Source of the DNA: Gemmatimonadales bacterium
Lineage (GTDB): Bacteria; Gemmatimonadota; Gemmatimonadetes; Gemmatimonadales; GWC2-71-9
NCBI GenBank assembly: GCA_035763805.1
Contig: DASUAL010000133.1
Span: forward strand, 2,518-66,517
Length of the DNA: 64,000 nucleotides
Reading direction: 5' to 3'
The position numbers and the translations under genes were made by a program. The notes below the pieces were generated by a model. The model did no database searches. It worked only from the letters and a program-made list of their open reading frames with translations, and was not told the DNA's origin. Shown here piece by piece: positions 614 through 23,269 of the stretch. Within the stretch, counting starts at the first letter, position 1. Every line of letters begins with the position of its first letter.

Positions 614-1090
614 TCACGCGCGGGCGGCCGCCTCGACGAGAGCGGCGAGCTGCTGGCGGTTCAACACGCCCGCCTGACGCGCCGACTCCCGGCCGTCCCG
701 GAAGACGATCAGCGTGGGGATGGCGCGGATGCCGAGTCGCTGAGTGGTCGCGGGGTTCCTGTCCGTGTCGAGCTTGATCACGAGCACCTCGCCAGCGCGG
801 TCGCGCGCGAAGTCGTCGAGGATCGGCGCCATGATCTTGCAGGGCCCGCACCAGTCGGCGTAGCAGTCCATGACAACCGGCACGTCGGTGCCGGAGATCA
901 CCCGCTCGACGGTGGCGTCGCTGACGGCGATCGGGCGGTCGAGGAGGATGGGGCGCTTGCACTCGCCGCACCGCGGCCGGTCCGCCAGCCGCGACAGGTC
1001 CACGCGGTTGAGCGTGGCGCAGAACGGACAGGCGACGGTCGCATGCCGGCTGACGGCGGCGTCGGAGCCGCTGGTCCCATGAGTCGTCAT
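614..1090 (-). CDS. trxC: Thioredoxin 2-type thioredoxin with N-terminal Zn-finger
   Basis: 158 aa. WCGPC active site (DCYADWCGPCKIM) preceded by two CxxC pairs (CPFC...CGEC), as in Trx2. Confidence 0.9.
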   Translation of the reverse strand: MTTHGTSGSDAAVSRHATVACPFCATLNRVDLSRLADRPRCGECKRPILLDRPIAVSDATVERVISGTDVPVVMDCYADWCGPCKIMAPILDDFARDRAGEVLVIKLDTDRNPATTQRLGIRAIPTLIVFRDGRESARQAGVLNRQQLAALVEAAARA

Positions 1091-1115
1091 GGCTGGTTGC
1101 TCGGTCCCTTTTATG

Positions 1116-1679
1116 CTAGCGCGTGGGGGCGTACCGCACCACCAGCCGCCGGCCTTCCTCGTCGTAGGTGACGAGCAACACGCGGCGCGCGGCGAGGGTG
1201 ACTACGGTGTCGAGAACGAGCCGGGCGGGGGTGGTCGCTTCCTCCCGATCCTCCTCGCTGGGCCTGCGCGCTCCCGTGGGCGTCTCCCCGTCGCGGGCGA
1301 ACCTCACCACCAGCACATGGCTTCCCGGCTCGAGCGTCAGCTCGCGGAACACATAGAGCGGCCGATCGTGGCGCGCCCCGGCGGCGCGCACAAGCTCGTC
1401 CACCGCGCGGACGCCGTCGAGGCTGACCCGAAGGCGGTACGGGGGGACCCGGCCCTCGCACCGCTCTTCCTGGCGCATGTGCACCGGGAGACGCTCGAGC
1501 TCTTCGGGAGTGAGGCGCCGGCATTCCTCCACCTGCTCGCCGCGCGCGCGCCAGGTCAGACGGAGCACCGCGTGCCGCGCACCGTCCGCCGTGTACGGCG
1601 CGCGCGAGAGCGCACCCAGGCCGAACAGCGCCGCCACGGCGATGCCGGCGCCGAGTGCGCGCCGCAGGACCGCGCTCAC
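1116..1679 (-). CDS. Hypothetical membrane-anchored protein
   Basis: ORF-track entry 1116..1799 trimmed. GTG at 1679-1677 overlaps the TGA (1678-1676) of the upstream gene (GTGA coupling). N-terminal hydrophobic anchor (LGAGIAVAALFGLGAL). No domain recognised. Confidence 0.55.
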   Translation of the reverse strand: MSAVLRRALGAGIAVAALFGLGALSRAPYTADGARHAVLRLTWRARGEQVEECRRLTPEELERLPVHMRQEERCEGRVPPYRLRVSLDGVRAVDELVRAAGARHDRPLYVFRELTLEPGSHVLVVRFARDGETPTGARRPSEEDREEATTPARLVLDTVVTLAARRVLLVTYDEEGRRLVVRYAPTR

Positions 1680-3256
1680 CGCGAGACCTCGCCCATGATC
1701 TTCTCGCACTCCCGTGACAAGTCGAAGTCGCTTTCCCGTGCAGCGGCTTCCAAGGCCGCGAGCGCGACGCGGAAATCCGCGAGCTCGCGCAGCACGCATG
1801 CCGTCTCGGCCTCTCCGGCGAACGCGAGGCGCACGCGCCGGCGGTCGACGCGGTCCCGCAGCTCGGCCTCGCGATCATGGTACATCCGCTGTTCGAGCCA
1901 CTTCCCGCCCTCGCGGTTCCAGCAGTCGCGCGCCGGGCACGCGATGACCAGCACGCCGCCCGCGCCGGCGCGCAGCACGAACTCGATCACGGACGTGTGG
2001 AGGCTGCCAGCACACGCGACCGCGTATATGGGGGCGCCGTGGAACCAGGCCCGGGCCGCGATACCGCCGGCCCCGCGGTCGCATGCGATGATTACGATGT
2101 CCCCCGGGCCAGGCCACCGGGCCGCGACGAACGCCTTCACCGCCGAGAGCTGGTCGCGACCGGTGCGCCGCGGCGGGCCGACGCCCATCGGCGCGCACGA
2201 CCCCGCGCAGATCCCGCAACTCACGCAGCGCGCGGGATCGACGCGGGCGACGAGATCACTCTGCTCAGGGCGCCGGTCGGCCCGCTCCACCATCCCGATC
2301 GCCTCGTACGGGCAGTCCTCATAGCACTGCTCGCATCCCGTGCAGAGCCGCTCGTCCACCGCCGACGGTAGCGGCCGTCGCTCGGGCGCCGGTCGCGTCC
2401 AGAGCGGCGCGAGCAGCGTGACGCCGGCGATCACGACCACCGCCCCCCAAACCACCCCGGACGAGAATGGGCGGGCGAGCGGGACCCAGAACGAGTAGAA
2501 CCAATCGAACGGCGCCCGGCCGGGGAGCGCGAACAGGTCCGCAGGGGGAGCCATCCCGACCGGCCAGAAGACGGAGATTCCGAGGAGCAAACCGATCACG
2601 GCCCACATCAGCCCGCGCGGCGGCAGGAGGCCCGGCCGCGCGACGCGCGACACATGCAGCCAGACGAGCAAGCCCATGCCGATCGGCAGCGCGATGTGGG
2701 CGAACAGATTGAGGAAGAAGAACGCGCCCGGGATGGGGTGCTCACCGACGAAGGCCCGGCTGATGGGCTCCGACAAGATGGGGAGGACGTCGAGCAGGCG
2801 CGCCCCCTCTTGGGCGAGCACCTGCCCCTGAATGTCCCACACCATGACGTATCCGGTCCAGCCGCACAACAGCACGACAAACAGAAGGGTCAGGCCGCTG
2901 ACCCAGGCGAGCGTCCGCGGCCCCCAGCTCCTCCCCTGGGCGAAGAGCCGAAGCGCGTGCACCAGGACCGCGACGACCGCTGCGTCCGATGCGTAGCGGT
3001 GCAACCCCCGGATCCAGCGACCGAACCACACCTGGTCGGTAATGCGGGCGACCGAGGCAAAGGGCGCGCCGATGCGGTAGAAGAAGAGGAGGTAGACCCC
3101 GGTGATCAGGACGACCAGCATCAGCGCGACGACCAGCGCCCCGCTGTGGTACAGCGGGTTGTAGCGCCAGCCGTAGAGCCGGTTCATCCAGGCGTCTGCG
3201 CGCGCCAGGACCCGGCGCGTCCCGCGCTGCAGGGCTGCCGCGATCGGCACGATCAC
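1676..3256 (-). CDS. Fusion protein: di-haem cytochrome b N-terminal-like membrane domain + 2x[4Fe-4S] ferredoxin + MvhD/FlpD-like (hydrogenase iron-sulfur subunit-like) domain
   Basis: 526 aa, GTG start at 3256. Two H-x13-H pairs in TM helices (HRYASDAAVVAVLVH; HIALPIGMGLLVWLH), as in cytochrome b helices B and D. Two CxxCxxCxxxCP motifs (CTGCEQCYEDCP; CVSCGICAGSCP). C-terminal IVIIACDRG...AVACAGSLHTSVIEFVLRAGAGGVLVIACPARDCWNREGG resembles the MvhD/FlpD family. Confidence 0.8.
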   Translation of the reverse strand: MIVPIAAALQRGTRRVLARADAWMNRLYGWRYNPLYHSGALVVALMLVVLITGVYLLFFYRIGAPFASVARITDQVWFGRWIRGLHRYASDAAVVAVLVHALRLFAQGRSWGPRTLAWVSGLTLLFVVLLCGWTGYVMVWDIQGQVLAQEGARLLDVLPILSEPISRAFVGEHPIPGAFFFLNLFAHIALPIGMGLLVWLHVSRVARPGLLPPRGLMWAVIGLLLGISVFWPVGMAPPADLFALPGRAPFDWFYSFWVPLARPFSSGVVWGAVVVIAGVTLLAPLWTRPAPERRPLPSAVDERLCTGCEQCYEDCPYEAIGMVERADRRPEQSDLVARVDPARCVSCGICAGSCAPMGVGPPRRTGRDQLSAVKAFVAARWPGPGDIVIIACDRGAGGIAARAWFHGAPIYAVACAGSLHTSVIEFVLRAGAGGVLVIACPARDCWNREGGKWLEQRMYHDREAELRDRVDRRRVRLAFAGEAETACVLRELADFRVALAALEAAARESDFDLSRECEKIMGEVSR

Positions 3257-3286
3257 GCCCGCCAGTGAGAGGGATCTTGCGGGGTC

Positions 3287-3311
3287 AATTTATCATATTA
3301 TCATGATAAAA
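3287..3311. promoter_or_regulatory. AT-rich operator-like element in the divergent promoter region (candidate Rrf2 binding site)
   Basis: AATTTATCATATTATCATGATAAAA stands out in GC-rich DNA. It contains the perfect 12-bp palindrome TTATCATGATAA (3298-3309) and the direct repeat TTATCAT / TTATCAT. It lies 12 nt upstream of the Rrf2 ATG, inside the 66-bp gap between divergent operons. Confidence 0.45.
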
Positions 3312-3322
3312 GGCACCTGGTC

Positions 3323-3730
3323 ATGCTCTCCCAGACGGCGGAATACGCACTCCGGGCCGTGCTCTACCTCGGCGAGCACACCGGCCCGGTGCGCGTGGGC
3401 GACATGGCCCAGGCGCTGCAGATTCCCCGCAACTACCTCTCCAAGATACTGCACCTATTGGCTCGCACCGGCGTGCTTGCATCGGCGCGGGGCAAGACCG
3501 GCGGCTTTCAGCTCGCCGTGCCGGCCGACCGCTTGCGCCTCCACCACATCATCGCGCCGTTCGACCGGATCGACGAGCGGCGCCGCTGCCTGCTCGGCCG
3601 ACCGCAGTGCAGCGACCGCACCGCCTGCGCGGCTCACACGCGATGGAAAGACGTCGCGGACACGGTCGCGTCGTTCTTCCGGGAGACTACCGTCGCGGAG
3701 CTGCTCAGCGGCGCCGAGGTCTCAGTGTGA
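3323..3730 (+). CDS. Rrf2 family transcriptional regulator (Fe-S cluster-type, IscR/NsrR-like)
   Basis: 135 aa. N-terminal MLSQTAEYALRAVLYL... winged-HTH typical of Rrf2. Cluster-ligand pattern C89-x6-C96-x5-C102-x2-H105. Confidence 0.9.
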   Translation: MLSQTAEYALRAVLYLGEHTGPVRVGDMAQALQIPRNYLSKILHLLARTGVLASARGKTGGFQLAVPADRLRLHHIIAPFDRIDERRRCLLGRPQCSDRTACAAHTRWKDVADTVASFFRETTVAELLSGAEVSV

Positions 3731-3755
3731 CTCCCACGACACCAGAGGAGGTTTC

Positions 3756-3932
3756 ATGACGGAGCGACGCAACAACCCGGGTGAGGCCACGGAAGATCAG
3801 CTCCCCCTGATGCAGCGGCTGTACGACAGTCCGTTTCTGCTGCTCATCGCGGGCATCGTGGTGATGGTCGTGTTCTACACGGGGTGGGGTCTGTGGGAGA
3901 TCCTGAGGCTCCCACCGGCGCCGCTCCCCTGA
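3756..3932 (+). CDS. Small single-TM protein (position and size analogous to ba3 oxidase subunit IIa)
   Basis: 58 aa (MTERRNN...FLLLIAGIVVMVVFYTGWGLWEIL...). ATG preceded by GAGGAGG. Internal start within ORF-track entry 3303..3932. Sits immediately upstream of subunit II. Confidence 0.5.
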   Translation: MTERRNNPGEATEDQLPLMQRLYDSPFLLLIAGIVVMVVFYTGWGLWEILRLPPAPLP

Positions 3933-3947
3933 CGCGGGAGGGCTTCC

Positions 3948-4499
3948 ATGAACACGGGAATGCAATCGCCGCGCGGAATCTGGTGGAAGCCGGCGGACCG
4001 CACAGAGAAGCTCTGGGTCGGCATCGCATTCGGCTGGTGCATGGTCTTGTTCGCCATGATGCCGCTGTGGCATTTGAGGGGGGCCCAAAACCCGTCCGGT
4101 ATTCGCCACCGCGTGGACCCGAGCGCCTACGCCCGGCGCGTGAACGAGTTCACCAAGCAGTACAAAGTCGGCGAGGAAGCAGGATTCGCGATCGTCGAGC
4201 CGCCACCGGGCAGCGACGTCTACCTGATGGGCCGCATGTGGGCGTGGGAGCCGATTCTCAAGCTGCAGAAGGGCGTGGAATACACGCTCCACCTCTCGTC
4301 GCTCGACCTGAACCACGGGTTCAGCCTGCAACCGGTGAACCTCAATTTCCAGGTCCTCCCCGGCTACGACTACGGACTGCGCGTCGTCCCCACCGAGGCG
4401 GGCGACTTCCGGATGGTCTGCAACGAGTTTTGCGGCATCGGTCACCATCTCATGGTCGGCCGCGTGATCGTGGTCGATAGCGCTGGAGGTGGGAAATGA
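3948..4499 (+). CDS. Haem-copper oxidase-superfamily subunit II (single-TM, cupredoxin, CuA site), B-family/ba3-like
   Basis: 183 aa. One N-terminal TM helix. CuA ligands LNHGF ... CNEFCGIGHHLM (H, C-x-E-x-C, H, M). RBS GGGAGGG. Confidence 0.9.
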   Translation: MNTGMQSPRGIWWKPADRTEKLWVGIAFGWCMVLFAMMPLWHLRGAQNPSGIRHRVDPSAYARRVNEFTKQYKVGEEAGFAIVEPPPGSDVYLMGRMWAWEPILKLQKGVEYTLHLSSLDLNHGFSLQPVNLNFQVLPGYDYGLRVVPTEAGDFRMVCNEFCGIGHHLMVGRVIVVDSAGGGK

Positions 4500-6196
4500 C
4501 GGCCACCGCGATCTTCCGCACGTGCCCCACCACGGGGCTCAAGGTCAACGCCCAGGCCGAAGCGCTCATCAAGGCGAACGCCGTGGCGGCGACAGTGTCG
4601 CTGCTGATCGGCGGGATCGCGGCGGTGCTGGTGCTGCTCACGCGCTGGCAGGTGGTACATCTGCTGTCGGCGGCGTGGTTCTACCGCATCCTCACGGTGC
4701 ACGGGATGAGCATGCTGATCTTCTTCATCCTCTTCTTCGAGATGGCGGTGTTGTACTTCGCCAGCGCGGTCCTGCTGAACAGTCGCGTCGCGACCCCACG
4801 TCTCGCCTGGGCGTCGTTCGGGCTGATGATCCTGGGCGCGGTGCTCGTCGAATGGATGATGTGGGCGGGGCGCGCCGACGTGCTCTTCACCTCCTACGTC
4901 CCGCTCCGCGCCGACCCGCTCTTCTACCTCGGCGTCATCCTGTTCGCCGTGGGCGCCCTGATCGTGGTCGCCATCTTCTTCGGGACGCTCGTCGTGGCGA
5001 GGCGGGAGCGCACGTACCAGGGCTCGGTGCCGCTCGTAACGTTCGGCGCCGCGACGGCAGCCATCATCGCAGCCGTGACGCTCGGCCACGGCGCCGCCAT
5101 CTACATCCCCACCTTCTTCTGGTCACTCGGGTGGATGAGGGTCGACCCCGAGATCTACCGCATGGTGTGGTGGGGCCTCGGTCATGCGTCCCAGCAGATC
5201 AACGTCTCCGCCATGGTGTCCATCTGGTACCTGCTCGGCGCGTTGACGATCGGCGCGATCGTGCTGAACGAAAAGGTGAGCCGCACCGCGTTCGTGCTCT
5301 ACATCCTCTTCATCAACATCGCGTCGGCGCACCACTTGCTCGTGGACCCCGGCCTGCCGCCGGCGTGGAAGGTCTGGAACACGAGCTATGCGATGTACCT
5401 CGCCGTGCTCGCGAGCATGGTGCACGGCTTCACGGTGCCCGCCGGCATGGAAGCGGGCCAGCGGTTGCGCGGCTACACCAAGGGGCTGTTCGAGTGGCTG
5501 CGCAAGGCGCCGTGGGGTGACCCGGGGTTCAGCGCACTCGTGTTCTCCATCATCATCTTCGGCTTCGTGGGCGGCATCACGGGCGTCACCTTCGGGACGG
5601 AGCAGATCAACATCATCGCCCACAACACGCTGCGCATCCCGGGGCACTTCCACGCGACGGTCGTGGCCGGCACGGCGCTCGCGTTCATGGGCCTCACCTA
5701 CTACGTGATCCCACTGATCTTCCGAAAGCAGGTCGCGTTCTGGAAGCTCGCGAAGATCCAGCCGTACCTGTTCGCGGGTGGGATGTTCATCTTCACGGTG
5801 TTCATGACGTTCGCCGGCACGTTCGGCGTGCCCCGGCGCCACTACGACATCAGCTTCTCGCGAGCGCCGTTCGGCGTGCAGTTCAACCCGGCCGTGGACC
5901 TCGTCATGGGGATCATGGCGCTGGGCGGGCTCGTCGCGGCGGTGGGCGGGGGGATGTACCTCCTTATCACCGTCTGGTCCGTGTTCTTCGGGAAGCCGCT
6001 CGAGGCCGGCGCCCCCACCGGGATGTTCGGGGTGCCGCAGGGAATCAAGACGCCGCCGAAGCCAATCCCTGAGACCGCCACGAAGCACGGGCCGACACCG
6101 GGCACGCTGGTGCTGGTGCTCGTGTTTCTCGCGGCGTTCGTGGCCTACTACTTCGTGAACTGGAAACTGCTCTCGGGCGTCTGGAGGGTGGGCTGA
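4496..6196 (+). CDS. Haem-copper oxidase-superfamily subunit I, B-family-like, lacking the cross-link Tyr (candidate NO reductase)
   Basis: 566 aa. ATGA overlap with subunit II. LTVHGMSM (low-spin haem His), WWGLGHASQQ (CuB His, no Tyr at +4), SAHHLLVD (CuB His pair), GHFHATV (haem His pair). Confidence 0.9.
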   Translation: MTATAIFRTCPTTGLKVNAQAEALIKANAVAATVSLLIGGIAAVLVLLTRWQVVHLLSAAWFYRILTVHGMSMLIFFILFFEMAVLYFASAVLLNSRVATPRLAWASFGLMILGAVLVEWMMWAGRADVLFTSYVPLRADPLFYLGVILFAVGALIVVAIFFGTLVVARRERTYQGSVPLVTFGAATAAIIAAVTLGHGAAIYIPTFFWSLGWMRVDPEIYRMVWWGLGHASQQINVSAMVSIWYLLGALTIGAIVLNEKVSRTAFVLYILFINIASAHHLLVDPGLPPAWKVWNTSYAMYLAVLASMVHGFTVPAGMEAGQRLRGYTKGLFEWLRKAPWGDPGFSALVFSIIIFGFVGGITGVTFGTEQINIIAHNTLRIPGHFHATVVAGTALAFMGLTYYVIPLIFRKQVAFWKLAKIQPYLFAGGMFIFTVFMTFAGTFGVPRRHYDISFSRAPFGVQFNPAVDLVMGIMALGGLVAAVGGGMYLLITVWSVFFGKPLEAGAPTGMFGVPQGIKTPPKPIPETATKHGPTPGTLVLVLVFLAAFVAYYFVNWKLLSGVWRVG

Positions 6197-6200
6197 TCCG

Positions 6201-7088
6201 GTGAGGCGGCTCCGGGAGACGACGGCGGTCGCGGGGCTCGCCGCGATCCTCGCGATCACCGCCTGCTGGTGGGCACTAGCTCTCTGGCCGCTGCCGCCGA
6301 CCACACCCACGTGGCTGGTCCGCACTCGGGCGGTCTGTTTCGGCACGACGCCGAGCGGTCTGCCGGACGTTTCTGGATGGATGGCCCTCATCGGCCAGCC
6401 CGCGCTGATGCTCGGCACGCTGCTCCTGGTGTGGGGTGATGTGGTTCGCGCGGCGCTGCGGTCGCTCGCCGGCTCCGCCGCCGGCCGCGTCGCCCTCGGC
6501 GGCGCGGCCGCCTTCATGTTGGCGGGGACAGGAGCAGCTGGCGTGCGGGTGGCGAGCGCCGGAGCGGCGCAACAGCTCGCCGTCGCGCCCTCTTCCCCCG
6601 TCCCGGCGGAGTACCCGCGGCTCGACCGGCCTGCGCCGCCGCTCGAGCTGATCGACCAGCACGGCGAGCCGGTGACCCTGGCGCGTTTCCGCGGGCGGCC
6701 GGTGTTCGTCGCGTTCGCGTACGCACACTGCGAGACCGTGTGCCCGCTCCTCGTGCGCGAGGTGCTGCGCGCGCGCGAGCTCGCTGGCGACGTCGCGCCC
6801 GTGACGCTCGTCGTCACCCTGGACCCGTGGCGTGATACCCCGTCGCGGCTCCCGGCCATCGCCGAGCGCTGGGGGCTCCCTGGTGACGCCTTCGTTGCGG
6901 GCGGCGACAGCGCACTCGTGGCGGCCACCCTCGCGCACTGGAACGTGGCGCTCCAGCGCGACCTCCGCACCGGCGAGATCGCCCACGCGACACTCGTCTA
7001 CCTCGTGGACCGCGATGGCCGGGTCGCCTACGCCGTCAGCGGCAGCTCCGGGGCCGCGGCACTCGCGGAGCTCGCACGGCGGCTCTAG
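6201..7088 (+). CDS. SCO1/SenC family copper chaperone with N-terminal membrane domain
   Basis: 295 aa, GTG start. Thioredoxin-fold CxxxC (AHCETVCP) and a downstream conserved His (GEIAHAT). Located directly after subunit I. Confidence 0.85.
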   Translation: MRRLRETTAVAGLAAILAITACWWALALWPLPPTTPTWLVRTRAVCFGTTPSGLPDVSGWMALIGQPALMLGTLLLVWGDVVRAALRSLAGSAAGRVALGGAAAFMLAGTGAAGVRVASAGAAQQLAVAPSSPVPAEYPRLDRPAPPLELIDQHGEPVTLARFRGRPVFVAFAYAHCETVCPLLVREVLRARELAGDVAPVTLVVTLDPWRDTPSRLPAIAERWGLPGDAFVAGGDSALVAATLAHWNVALQRDLRTGEIAHATLVYLVDRDGRVAYAVSGSSGAAALAELARRL

Positions 7089-7162
7089 CGTCCGCCTTCC
7101 CTGAGCCGGCGAAGCCCGGCATCACTTCCGCGGGTCGGCGCAAAGATGCGGTGTCGCTGCCG

Positions 7163-7591
7163 CTAGATTTCCGACAATCCCGACGCGCGCACGCGCGCCC
7201 AGATGTTGGCGGCAAACACGACGGCGGCCGCGACCTCGGCCAGCCGGCCGGCCACGGGCAAGATCGCCGCCCCCGCCCCCCGACCAACGATGGGCCCGAC
7301 CCCGGCGAGCCACACGCCCGCATTGAGCAGTGCAAAAGCAACCCAGGCCGCCGTCTCGCTGCCGTACGGCGAGCGTCGCACGCCGAAGCGCGGGAAGATC
7401 CACGTCGCGACCCCCATCACCAGCTGGATCACCCACCCCGCGACCAGGAACTCGATGTGTGCCGGGACCAAGCGCGCTAGCGTCGAATCGATTGGCAGTC
7501 CTTTGTTCCAGAGCAGCAGGGCGCCCAGCGTGAAGCCAAGCGCAAGGTTGACGAGCGACGCGCGGATGAACCAGCGGCTCACGACGGGCAC
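7163..7591 (-). CDS. Four-TM membrane protein, paralog B of a tandem pair
   Basis: 142 aa. Shares MP..SRWFI(K/R), H..LV.GW.IQ...GVA.W.FP and N.WARV motifs with the adjacent ORF. Confidence 0.6.
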   Translation of the reverse strand: MPVVSRWFIRASLVNLALGFTLGALLLWNKGLPIDSTLARLVPAHIEFLVAGWVIQLVMGVATWIFPRFGVRRSPYGSETAAWVAFALLNAGVWLAGVGPIVGRGAGAAILPVAGRLAEVAAAVVFAANIWARVRASGLSEI

Positions 7592-7598
7592 GGAGCCG

Positions 7599-8018
7599 CT
7601 ACCGCTCCTTCACCCGCGCCCACGTGTTGACCACGAACGCCATCCCGCCGAGCCATTGCAGCGCCGCCGATACGCCGAGCAGCCAGCCAAGTCCGGCCGC
7701 GGGGTGCACCGTGTGCGCCGGCTCGCCGAAGACCCGCAGCAGCAGCCCGAGGTTGAGGAACCAGTAGGACGCGATGGCGAGCCGGTCGCTGCCCCGGGGC
7801 GTCTCCTTGGAATGCTTGGGGAACATCCAGTAGGCGACGCCGAGGATCATCTGCGTGATCCACCCCACGACGAGGAGGTGGACGTACACCGGACCCGCCG
7901 CGGCGAGCACAGCAGGGAGGCCGAGGGGCGCCTGCACCGCCTGGGCCACGCCGACGACGAGGGCCGTGACGAAGTAAACGAGCGCCGTCTTGATGAACCA
8001 GCGAGTGAGGATGGGCAT
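7599..8018 (-). CDS. Four-TM membrane protein, paralog A of a tandem pair
   Basis: 139 aa. Roughly one third identical by eye to 7163..7591, and 7 nt upstream of it. Confidence 0.6.
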   Translation of the reverse strand: MPILTRWFIKTALVYFVTALVVGVAQAVQAPLGLPAVLAAAGPVYVHLLVVGWITQMILGVAYWMFPKHSKETPRGSDRLAIASYWFLNLGLLLRVFGEPAHTVHPAAGLGWLLGVSAALQWLGGMAFVVNTWARVKER

Positions 8019-9221: not shown

Positions 9222-10310
9222 GTGACCCGGGCCGCTGTCGTTACCGACCTGACCGCCGAGCTCAGCTGGCGAGCCGTCCTGGCCCGCGACCGCCGCTACG
9301 ACGGGGCGTTCGTGTATGCGGTGCGCTCGACTGGGATCTACTGCCGCCCCTCGTGCGCCAGCAGGAAGCCGCGACGCGAGTTGGTGGCGTTCTTCGGCGT
9401 GCCCGAGGCAGCCGAGCGGGCGGGGTTTCGCGCGTGCCGGCGCTGCCATCCGACACGGGTGAGCGCTGCCGACCCGCGCGTCCCGCTTGTGCGGGCGGTC
9501 TGCCGCCTGATCGATGCCCATCCGGACCGGCCCGCGAGCCTCGCGACCCTCAGCGGCCGGGTCGGCGCGACGCCGCACCGGCTGGTGCGTGCCTTCCGGG
9601 CCGTGCTTGGCCTCACGCCGCGCCAGTACCGGGACGAGCGCCGGCTGGACCGGTTCAAGACCCAGCTGAAGGAGAGACGAAAAGTGAGTCCCGCCCTGTA
9701 CGAAGCCGGTTACGGCTCGACCAGCCGTGTGTACGAGCGCGCGAACGCCCAGCTCGGCATGACCCCTGCGACGTACAGCCGCGGCGGCGCGGGGATGCGC
9801 ATCGCCTTCGCGATCGTCCCCTGCAGGCTCGGCCGCCTGCTCGTCGCCGCCACCGAGCGCGGCATCTCCCGCGTCGGTATCGGCGATGACGATCGTGTGC
9901 TGGAGCGCGGTCTGCGGACCGAATTCCCGGCGGCCTCGATCGCGCGCGATGACGCGAAGCTGCGATCCTGGGTCACGGAGCTGGTCGCGCATCTCGACGG
10001 CCGGCAGCCTCACCTCGACCTGCCGCTCGACGTGCGTGCCACGGCCTTCCAGCGGCGCGTGTGGGAGGCACTGCGGAAGATTCCCTACGGGAGCACGCGC
10101 ACGTATTCCGAGATCGCGCGCGCCATCGGAAATGCCAAGGCGACGCGCGCGGTCGCCCGAGCGTGTGCCACGAATCCGGTGGCCGTGGTGGTACCGTGTC
10201 ATCGGGTCGTGAGGGAAGGGGGAGAACTCGGTGGATACCGGTGGGGGATGGAGCGGAAGAGAGCGTTGCTCAAACAGGAAGCAGAAAGCAGAACAGGCAA
10301 CAACAACTAG
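9222..10310 (+). CDS. ada: Bifunctional Ada: Zn-binding methylphosphotriester domain + AraC-type HTH + O6-methylguanine-DNA methyltransferase
   Basis: 362 aa, GTG start. Ada Zn motif (YCRPSCASRKPRRE...CRRC). HTH region. C-terminal PCHRV active site. Confidence 0.9.
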   Translation: MTRAAVVTDLTAELSWRAVLARDRRYDGAFVYAVRSTGIYCRPSCASRKPRRELVAFFGVPEAAERAGFRACRRCHPTRVSAADPRVPLVRAVCRLIDAHPDRPASLATLSGRVGATPHRLVRAFRAVLGLTPRQYRDERRLDRFKTQLKERRKVSPALYEAGYGSTSRVYERANAQLGMTPATYSRGGAGMRIAFAIVPCRLGRLLVAATERGISRVGIGDDDRVLERGLRTEFPAASIARDDAKLRSWVTELVAHLDGRQPHLDLPLDVRATAFQRRVWEALRKIPYGSTRTYSEIARAIGNAKATRAVARACATNPVAVVVPCHRVVREGGELGGYRWGMERKRALLKQEAESRTGNNN

Positions 10311-22150: not shown

Positions 22151-23269
22151 TTACTCGTGCCTGAGCGAGTCGGCCGGCGTCGCCTTCTGGAAGGGTGCCA
22201 GATACTTCTCGTACCCCTCCGCCTTGAGCCGTTCGAGGGGGACGAACCGCAGCGCCGCTGAGTTGATGCAGTAGCGGAGGCCCGTCGGGCGCGGTCCGTC
22301 GTCGAAAACATGGCCGAGGTGGGAGTCGGCGCGCGCCGAGCGAACCTCGACCCGCACCATGAAGAGCGATCGATCCGTTCGCTCGCGGACGTTCGCCGGC
22401 TCGAGCGGCCGCGTGAAGCTCGGCCAGCCAGTGCCCGAATCGAACTTGTCCAGCGAGCTGAACAGCGGCTCGCCGGACACCACGTCCACGTAGAGGCCGG
22501 GGCGATGGTGGTCCCAGTACTCGTTGCGGAACGGCGGCTCGGTCGCGTCCCGCTGGGTGACCTCGTACTGCAGCGGTGTGAGTGAGCGGCGCAGCGACGC
22601 GTCGCTCGGTTTCTGGTAGTCCATCGTCTGCTCCTCCGCCTGCGGCGCGCCTGCGCCCCAGATCTCCCGGAGCCGCCGGTCACGGCCGCAACCCACGCGG
22701 TACAGCTTGTAGCGCACCGGATTCCGGCGCGCATAGTCCTGATGGTACTCCTCCGCGGGATAGAATTCCCCGGCCATCAGGATCGTCGTTACGATCGGCT
22801 GCTTGAACCGCCCGGAGGCCTCGAGTCTCCGCTTCGACTCCTCCGCCAGCCGGCGCTGCGTCGAGTCGTGGAAGAAGATCGCGGTGCGGTACTGAGGCCC
22901 GTGATCGCAGAACTGCGCGTTCGGCGTGACCGGATCGATATGGTGCCAGAAGACGTCGAGCAGCTTCTCGTAGCTGACCCTCCGAGGATCGTAAGCGATC
23001 TCCACTGCCTCGGCGTGCCCGGTCGACCCTGCCGAAACCTGCGCGTATGTCGGGCTCTTGACGCGCCCGCCGGTATAGCCCGACGTTGCCGAGATCACGC
23101 CATCGAGCGCATCGAACGCCAGCTCCACGGACCAGAAGCAGCCTCCCGCCAAGGTGGCCTTCGCGGTCGCCGGGGAGGGGGCCCGGTCGCCCGCTCGGGG
23201 CGGGGCTTGAGCCCTGCCCTGCCCCGCGAGAAGCAGCAAGACCAACAGAGTCTGGGTGTTTGCCAGCAT
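22151..23269 (-). CDS. msrAB: Exported bifunctional methionine sulfoxide reductase MsrA/MsrB
   Basis: 372 aa. Signal peptide ([15 protein letters not shown]). MsrA GGCFWS motif. MsrB C-terminal RYCINS motif. Confidence 0.9.

Follow-up and report, generated by a model that had tools for sequence, protein, structure and literature searches.

A Gemmatimonadales gene cluster for a probable eNOR-type nitric oxide reductase, with linked cytochrome b-Fe-S and Rrf2 genes

Can an enzyme built like the ba3-type oxygen reductases be recognised as a nitric oxide (NO) reductase by a change in its active site, and which genes belong with it? These questions are raised by a gene cluster in a 64,000-nt stretch of a Gemmatimonadales metagenome-assembled genome (MAG; genome G+C content 70%), referred to here as the window. 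A preliminary description of this DNA had reported five co-directional genes, namely an Rrf2 regulator, a 58-aa single-helix protein, subunits II and I of a haem-copper enzyme and a SCO1/SenC copper chaperone. From the Gln found in subunit I at the place of the cross-linked Tyr of oxygen reductases, it had proposed that the enzyme is a CuA-type NO reductase of B-family descent. In NCBI, the protein carries the annotation of a cytochrome oxidase. The comparisons presented here indicate that the region very likely encodes a nitric oxide reductase of the eNOR type, a member of a known family and not a new kind of enzyme. What appears to be new, judging from the sequences, is the wide conservation of a cytochrome b-Fe-S fusion protein together with a 187-aa partner, the Cys3-His set of the linked Rrf2 protein, and a candidate operator. 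No mention of the Rrf2 protein and operator, or of the breadth of the cytochrome b-Fe-S linkage, was found in the eNOR literature covered.

Active site of subunit I and its place in the eNOR family

The metal-binding residues of subunit I are all retained. H69 and H386 are the low-spin haem ligands, H384 is the high-spin haem ligand, and H230, H279 and H280 bind the active-site metal; all six His are invariant in both multiple alignments. In helix VI, GHASQQ was aligned over GHPIVY of Thermus ba3 by phmmer (E ~1e-43), placing Gln234 at Tyr237, and the same two residues fall in one column of the MAFFT alignments of 35 and 42 sequences. The loss of the helix-VI cross-link Tyr and its replacement by Gln, as first read from the raw sequence, are thus borne out by both methods. 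The B-family oxidase signature is GHP[ILV]VYFW, and all B-family comparators have VY; the window protein reads GHASQQIN instead. It carries Gln and not the Glu of cNOR and qNOR, which descend from the C family and have haem c or a fused quinol-binding domain, and its second subunit is a cupredoxin. It also lacks the Asn that stands at the Tyr position in sNOR and bNOR. Further clade-specific residues of subunit I are Q233, N236, E82, H310 and Y269.

The defining feature of the eNOR family is a conserved Gln that takes the place of the cross-link Tyr (PMC8756737, section 2.7.1, Table A4, after Hemp & Gennis 2008). According to the same table, sNOR has Asn and cNOR/qNOR have Glu at this position, and eNOR has one proton channel (PMC8756737). 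The link to eNOR, which the preliminary description had made only tentatively, is therefore confirmed by the published definition (PMC8756737). Additionally, eNOR, sNOR, gNOR and nNOR have been described as B-family-derived enzymes with CuA-type second subunits (PMC11214002). The window enzyme has the Gln, the three metal His and the haem ligands, and a CuA-type subunit II.

An AF2 model of subunit I was obtained with a pLDDT (predicted local confidence) of 80 and a pTM (predicted TM-score) of 0.84. The 21 best structural matches of this model in Foldseek are all Thermus ba3, and no cNOR or qNOR structure was found among the 50 best; the same search found no eNOR structure in the PDB copy used. 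The closest solved structure is the Thermus thermophilus ba3 enzyme (cbaDBA; PDB 1EHK/1XME; E 1e-43, Foldseek TM ~0.74). The two systems share the IIa-II-I gene order, as the preliminary description had recognised, as well as the CuA site, the His ligands of haem and metal, and a similar K channel. However, they are only ~25-30% identical, and apart from Y237 to Q234, the changes V236 to Q233, T312 to H310 and Y244 to V241 are seen between ba3 and the window protein, and helix VI reads QQ[IV]N in place of VYFW.

The CuA ligands of subunit II are H123, C158, C162, H166 and M169. They are conserved in at least 85% of 87 subunit II homologues. The EKLW motif of subunit II aligns with EKGW of ba3 subunit II, so that E20 corresponds to Glu15 at the entrance of the K channel. 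Within subunit I, the equivalents of ba3 S309, Y248 and T315 are S307, Y245 and T313, whereas an invariant H310 stands at the place of T312 and V241 at that of Y244. A K-type channel with conserved S307, Y245, T313 and subunit II E20 is thus present, and eNOR is reported to keep B-family-like K-channel residues including the S309 equivalent (PMC11214002).

The position of subunit I among its relatives was examined with 50%-identity cluster representatives and plasmid-borne homologues. The window protein falls in a group with helix VI GH-x-x-Q-Q-[IV]-N (the QQ group), whose members include proteins of a Defluviimonas plasmid (54% identity to the window), Thermus thermophilus plasmids (47-51%) and the haloarchaeon Natrarchaeobius (41%), together with Thermomicrobium roseum, Rhodothermales and alphaproteobacterial members. 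Close homologues were also found in the culturable species Tabrizicola soli, Litoreibacter arenae, Roseovarius amoyensis and Fodinibius halophilus. A second group, QY, has GH-x-x-Q-Y-[IV]-N and retains the Tyr; it is 38-47% identical to the window enzyme, and its named members are from Hodarchaeales and Thermoproteota, the others being unassigned. True B-family oxidases with GHP[ILV]VYFW are at most 34% identical to the window subunit I. In a neighbour-joining tree holding the haloarchaeal, Rhodothermales MAG and Thermus His/Lys sequences, and built without the R. marinus, Natronomonas and Magnetospirillum references, the QQ group came out as monophyletic in every one of 100 bootstraps; QY forms a grade at its base, and QQ and QY are joined in 75 of 100. 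The Thermus members of the QQ clade have GHFK where the others have GHFH, which matches the His/Lys ligation of the low-spin haem reported for some eNORs (PMC11214002). It is shown by these comparisons that subunit I is a B-family-derived haem-copper protein inside a clade defined by the Tyr-to-Gln change, and the eNOR literature agrees with this clade in supporting the proposed NO reductase. The case also illustrates that raw sequence is enough for a reliable reading of the Tyr-to-Gln signature.

The Tyr-retaining sister grade fits the reported clustering of 'K family' oxygen reductases with eNOR (bioRxiv 10.1101/592808). The QY sequences (P0126, P0128, P0129 and P0145), which have an otherwise eNOR-like helix VI and branch at the base of the eNOR clade, are probably these K-family enzymes, to judge from their motifs. 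They share Q233, N236, E82, H310 and Y269 with the window protein and differ in keeping the cross-link Tyr. If QY is the K family, the Tyr-to-Gln switch would be visible inside one lineage. A third related group (P0164, P0186 and P0202, one of them from a Dehalococcoidia MAG) has helix VI F-H-[VI]-x-H-Y, with an extra His beside the Tyr, and an equivalent of Tyr269. Glu82, located on helix II at a distance of 13 residues from the haem His, is common to the Tyr-retaining relatives, so that a structural or channel-related role appears more likely for it than that of a metal ligand.

The characterised eNOR proteins, that of Rhodothermus marinus and the 'cytochrome a1-like' protein of Magnetospirillum, resemble the window enzyme in the Gln, the three His, CuA, the K-channel residues and the B-family ancestry. 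The family is broadly distributed across bacteria and haloarchaea, and no family-defining feature differs in the window. SCO is found in its operons as in the window, and in relatives there are also synthases of haem o and haem a; ctaA is part of many eNOR operons (PMC11214002), whereas neither ctaA nor ctaB is near the window genes. Outside the family, the NO reductases bNOR (qCuANOR, Bacillus azotoformans) and sNOR likewise derive from the B family and combine a cupredoxin subunit with a proton channel, but they have Asn at the Tyr position (PMC8756737 Table A4 for sNOR; PMC11214002 for bNOR) and form separate clades.

Proposed in 2008, the eNOR family received its biochemical validation in 2021-2024, and metagenome surveys now count it as a matter of routine. 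The R. marinus enzyme, purified in 2024, contains haem As and reduces NO at 0.68 per s but not O2 (PMC11214002). Murali et al. counted eNOR in 547 GTDB genomes, and the genome scan performed here found relatives in at least 497 species. In some sediments, eNOR is among the most abundant NO reductase genes (PMC13592168).

The cytochrome b-Fe-S fusion, its 187-aa partner and the Rrf2 regulator

The five genes of the preliminary description are real, but the functional unit is larger than described and extends upstream to position 1116, including the cytochrome b-Fe-S fusion and the 187-aa protein. The window proteins were used to search 88 related loci, many of which are truncated, so that the following counts are minima. 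A homologue of subunit II was found in 87 of the 88 loci, of the 58-aa protein in 79, of SCO in 72, of the 526-aa fusion in 71 (spread over many phyla, in divergent or co-directional orientation), and of the 187-aa protein, adjoining the fusion, in 57. An Rrf2 homologue linked to the enzyme genes was found in 41, the Thermus plasmids included. These counts suggest that a cytochrome b/[Fe-S] partner of eNOR is the rule rather than the exception.

The 526-aa fusion is transcribed divergently from the enzyme genes. It consists of a cytochrome b6-like di-haem domain, two extra helices, a ferredoxin domain with two [4Fe-4S] clusters and an MvhD/FlpD-like domain. Its best match in the PDB is cytochrome b6 (8e-17), followed by HdrA and MvhD. 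H86, H100, H187, H201, the eight ferredoxin Cys, C392, C415, C440 and C445 are conserved in at least 90% of 72 homologues. Since six hydrophobic helices precede the Fe-S part and no export signal is present, the Fe-S domains are predicted to face the cytoplasm. Such a protein could move electrons through the membrane or link up with the quinone pool.

The gene of the 187-aa protein is translationally coupled to that of the fusion by a GTG start that overlaps the fusion stop as GTGA. Conserved residues of this protein are RL..., C93, E100, H107-M108-R109 and C114 (numbering of the 1116-1799 open reading frame, ORF); its single-sequence AF2 model, with a pLDDT of 36, was unusable. The pair occurs either divergently upstream, as in the window, or co-directionally downstream, as in Defluviimonas, Acidobacteriota, Methylomirabilota, Bdellovibrionota and a Rhodothermales MAG. 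Its conservation through rearrangement argues for a functional link with eNOR.

A comparable arrangement is known from Ferrigenium straubiae. There, eNOR II and eNOR I share an operon with haem o synthase, sco1 and a protein without assigned function, and denitrifying conditions led to up-regulation of this operon and to its detection in the proteome (bioRxiv 10.64898/2026.01.22.701106). Two cytochrome b/[Fe-S] proteins encoded nearby were called 'rather unusual' in that preprint (bioRxiv 10.64898/2026.01.22.701106). The order small ORF-II-I-(haem o synthase)-SCO matches, and the window shares eNOR II, eNOR I, sco1, the protein of unknown function and the neighbouring cytochrome b/[Fe-S] protein with Ferrigenium. 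The window fusion differs by its lack of an FAD or NADH domain; the window cluster has no haem o synthase, and no Rrf2 is described in Ferrigenium.

The regulator passed the Rrf2 superfamily model TIGR00738 (rrf2_super) with 107 bits against a cut-off of 73. C89, C96, C102 and H105 (C-x6-C-x5-C-x2-H) are invariant in 40 eNOR-linked homologues, and the protein likely binds an Fe-S cluster, as this residue set suggests. Orthology to NsrR was rejected, the NCBIfam NsrR model giving 38.7 bits against a cut-off of 182; the IscR equivalog gave 70.9 bits, also below its cut-off of 207. IscR is the closest solved relative (4e-13), followed by RsrR, with NsrR marginal (1e-3). The window protein shares with NsrR and IscR the Rrf2 fold, three Cys in the cluster loop and, presumably, control through an inverted-repeat operator; its Cys spacing of x6 and x5 followed by x2-His is IscR-like. 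The preliminary description had proposed an NO-responsive enzyme behind an Fe-S Rrf2 regulator. The Cys/His set stood up, but the protein is not an NsrR orthologue, so that a response to NO may be supposed without following from orthology.

A palindrome, TTTATCAT-N6-ATGATAAA (TATCAT-N6-ATGATA), lies between the divergent genes, 13 nt before the Rrf2 ATG. With up to two mismatches allowed, it is the sole such site in the 64 kb, where 0.13 would be expected. Upstream of the first operon gene, the palindrome was found in 24 of 84 sequences scanned (the window and 23 related loci), compared to 4 matches in 451 kb of flanking DNA. Loci with a linked Rrf2 gene have it more often than those without (18/38 versus 5/38, Fisher p = 0.002). 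A sigma-70-like match, ATGACC-16-GATAAT, is the only promoter-like site in 900-7700; it points toward the cytochrome b fusion and has its -10 hexamer inside the palindrome. The palindrome is read as a candidate operator of the window Rrf2 protein. We know of no published consensus that matches the TATCAT half-site.

Gene layout and neighbouring genes

The positions of the genes and sites are collected in Table 1. All five co-directional ORFs were recovered on the forward strand with the expected family matches, and every motif reported earlier for Rrf2, CuA, SCO1 and subunit I was found, as was the overlap of the subunit II stop and the subunit I start (ATGA, 4496-4499). The G+C content at third codon positions of the five ORFs is of the coding type (0.85-0.95). 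The order of small ORF, II, I and SCO recurs in ~80 species genomes, which argues that the arrangement is not due to chance.

Table 1. Genes and sites of the eNOR-type cluster, in window positions
Feature	Position	Strand	Basis
187-aa membrane-anchored protein	1116-1679	-	coupled to fusion gene; one N-terminal hydrophobic helix; no Pfam family
526-aa cytochrome b / Fe-S / MvhD-like fusion	1676-3256	-	Pfam Cytochrome_B 1e-15, Fer4_7 8e-8, FlpD 1e-8
AT-rich palindrome, candidate Rrf2 operator	3289-3310		perfect inverted repeat
Sigma-70-like promoter match ATGACC-16-GATAAT	3297-3324	-	consensus match only
Rrf2-family regulator	3323-3730	+	Pfam Rrf2 1e-26; NCBIfam rrf2_super above cut-off
58-aa single-helix protein, position of ba3 subunit IIa	3756-3932	+	one hydrophobic helix; GGAGG 7 nt upstream
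Subunit II, N-terminal helix and cupredoxin domain with CuA site	3948-4499	+	ba3 subunit II match 8e-17
Catalytic subunit I, probable eNOR type, 566 aa	4496-6196	+	Pfam COX1 6e-63
SCO1/SenC copper chaperone	6201-7088	+	Pfam SCO1-SenC 9e-22

The 58-aa protein matched no Pfam family, and its P, QR, D, LLL, WG and LP residues are conserved among homologues. The SCO1 protein has the motif CETVCP at residue 177 and presumably loads CuA. Its N-terminal ~75 residues (6201-6430) form a conserved membrane extension, T..WW..AL.P...W..R.R..CF...GLP...GW, which is common to the SCO proteins of related clusters and lies outside the plain SCO1 domain model.

Downstream of the SCO gene, two tandem paralogues (7163-7591 and 7599-8018, both on the reverse strand) encode proteins of ~140 aa that are 32% identical, each with four predicted helices; the one family resemblance they show, to the N-terminal part of COX1, is weak and below threshold. 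Because only 2 of the 88 loci have them linked to eNOR, they were rejected as part of the unit. Just beyond the 187-aa gene are a thioredoxin-2-type protein with a zinc ribbon (614-1090, reverse) and a TM2-domain protein (175-612, reverse). The TM2 gene recurs close to the cluster in three other Gemmatimonadales loci, the thioredoxin gene in none. Farther away lie an Ada-type methyltransferase/AraC fusion (9222-10310, forward) and an MsrA-MsrB fusion (22151-23269, reverse); msrA is also near the eNOR genes on Thermus plasmids, probably by coincidence.

For the neighbour families of the related loci, only ORF clusters confirmed by family models were used, and clusters of high-GC shadow ORFs were left out. 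Haem o synthase (ctaB) is near the cluster in 13 related loci and haem a synthase (ctaA) in 6, and a CopD-like gene occurs in 8. A TIGR04053 radical-SAM gene was also found in 8 loci. This radical SAM/SPASM gene lies within a few kb of eNOR in L011, L015, L044, L052, L053, L071, L002 and L003, which belong to different phyla, and its next best model match is the haem b synthase AhbD; the protein might act in haem modification for eNOR. NirK genes above the NCBIfam cut-off adjoin the cluster in one MAG each of the Gemmatimonadota and the Bdellovibrionota (L049 and L082), and NirK-like genes do so in two further Gemmatimonadota MAGs (L045 and L061) and on the Thermus plasmids.

On the Thermus thermophilus plasmids (L002, 11444-15052; L003, 9442-13059), the eNOR-type genes encode GHFK, with Lys in place of the second low-spin haem His, and are followed by an Rrf2 gene, a DUF542/ScdA_N gene and a cupin gene. 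Upstream of them are a NirK-like multicopper oxidase, a cytochrome c and the TIGR04053 gene, and L002 also has a cytochrome P460. No cytochrome b-Fe-S fusion was found near the eNOR genes on these two plasmids.

Alternative explanations, proposed mechanism and implications

It is highly improbable that the enzyme is still an O2 reductase, that is, a variant of the ba3 or K family with Tyr269 on helix VII or another redox-active residue as a substitute. In favour of this reading, Thermus ba3 oxidase provides every one of the best solved matches in sequence and structure, the Tyr is retained by the nearest relatives outside the clade, and the NCBI annotation is that of a cytochrome oxidase. Tyr269, which lies 10 residues before the HH pair and had been pointed out from the start as a possible substitute, is invariant in the QQ clade. 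It is, however, conserved equally in the QY relatives with the canonical helix-VI Tyr and is also present in the third related group. Tyr269 therefore predates the loss of the Tyr and is not its replacement, and the idea that it is a cross-link Tyr that has migrated was rejected. The spacing is different, too: the migrated Tyr of cbb3 oxidases, as in the Pseudomonas stutzeri structure, precedes the HH pair by 6 residues, and Tyr269 by 10. Furthermore, Murali et al. found no migrated Tyr in models of these NOR families, and the purified eNOR did not reduce O2 (PMC11214002). A role other than respiratory NO reduction, such as NO detoxification, reduction of another small oxidant or a coupling like the quinol:NAD+ one proposed for Ferrigenium, is unlikely but has more in its favour. 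The turnover of purified eNOR is low (PMC11214002), and 'NO or alternative substrates' were left open in PMC8756737. The window has no nir or nos gene, nirK is nearby in a minority of the related loci, and a cytoplasm-facing poly-Fe-S cytochrome b would be an unusual companion of a periplasm-fed reductase. Against this stand the expression of eNOR under denitrifying conditions in Accumulibacter, Gallionellaceae KS and Ferrigenium (PMC11214002; bioRxiv 10.64898/2026.01.22.701106), the complete denitrification of R. marinus with eNOR as its only NOR, and the adjacency of nirK in several phyla. In this organism, the enzyme may serve aerobic denitrification or NO detoxification.

With respect to regulation only, Rrf2 may sense Fe-S status, O2 or redox state like IscR and RsrR, instead of NO. 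This has a chance only somewhat short of even, and such a signal is about as likely as NO. Expression would then be tied to microoxia, because haem A synthesis needs O2; expression of the R. marinus eNOR did require microoxic conditions (PMC11214002). The spacing Cys-x6-Cys-x5-Cys-x2-His resembles the Cys3His set of IscR, and the order of the solved relatives (IscR at 4e-13, then RsrR, with NsrR weak) and the low NsrR score point the same way. However, Fe-S Rrf2 proteins generally react with NO, as is established for NsrR and IscR, and the DUF542/ScdA_N family is tied to the repair of nitrosative damage. In Thermus, a gene of this family comes after the linked Rrf2 gene, and a NirK-like gene adjoins upstream of the enzyme genes, so that an NO signal is plausible as well.

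Several points weigh against the assignment of the cluster as a whole to NO reduction by eNOR. NO reduction by this protein is deduced from its family membership, and the placement in eNOR is indirect, the characterised R. marinus and Magnetospirillum enzymes having been compared by description and not by sequence. The sole purified eNOR, that of R. marinus, is slow at 0.68 NO per s. The active-site metal could be Fe or Cu. No nir, nos, nar, ctaA or ctaB gene was found in the 64-kb window. The Rrf2 protein is nearer to IscR than to NsrR, which makes NO sensing plausible at most, and the role of the fusion is drawn from gene linkage.

As an eNOR, the enzyme would receive electrons from a periplasmic donor through CuA and the low-spin haem to the binuclear centre, where, by analogy with the family, 2 NO + 2 e- + 2 H+ would be converted to N2O + H2O. 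Protons would be taken up from the cytoplasm by a K-type pathway through subunit II E20 and subunit I S307, H310, T313 and Y245, and with cytoplasmic uptake the reaction would be electrogenic. O2 would not be reduced, since loss of the Tyr cofactor removes the fourth electron needed to cleave the O-O bond. From synteny, the Cys3-His Fe-S Rrf2 protein would control the divergent promoters through the TATCAT-N6-ATGATA palindrome. The fusion and the 187-aa protein would act in the same functional module as the enzyme, most simply in electron supply or electron coupling.

The eNOR genes may have been inherited together with the fusion and the 187-aa protein across at least 10 phyla, in many lineages also with the Rrf2 protein and its operator, as a larger, undescribed respiratory module; this proposal is tentative and on balance doubtful. 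If it is true, eNOR would be part of such a module and not a simple two-subunit enzyme. If the fusion is the redox partner of eNOR, it would wire a cytoplasmic Fe-S or quinone side to a periplasm-fed NO reductase, or couple the reduction of NO to one that would otherwise be uphill. The cytochrome b/Fe-S partner and the Rrf2 operator are handles on the electron supply to eNOR and on its induction. Databases label eNOR as cytochrome oxidase, as NCBI does for this protein, and correct labelling decides whether the Gemmatimonadota, known as N2O consumers, are also to be counted among the N2O producers.

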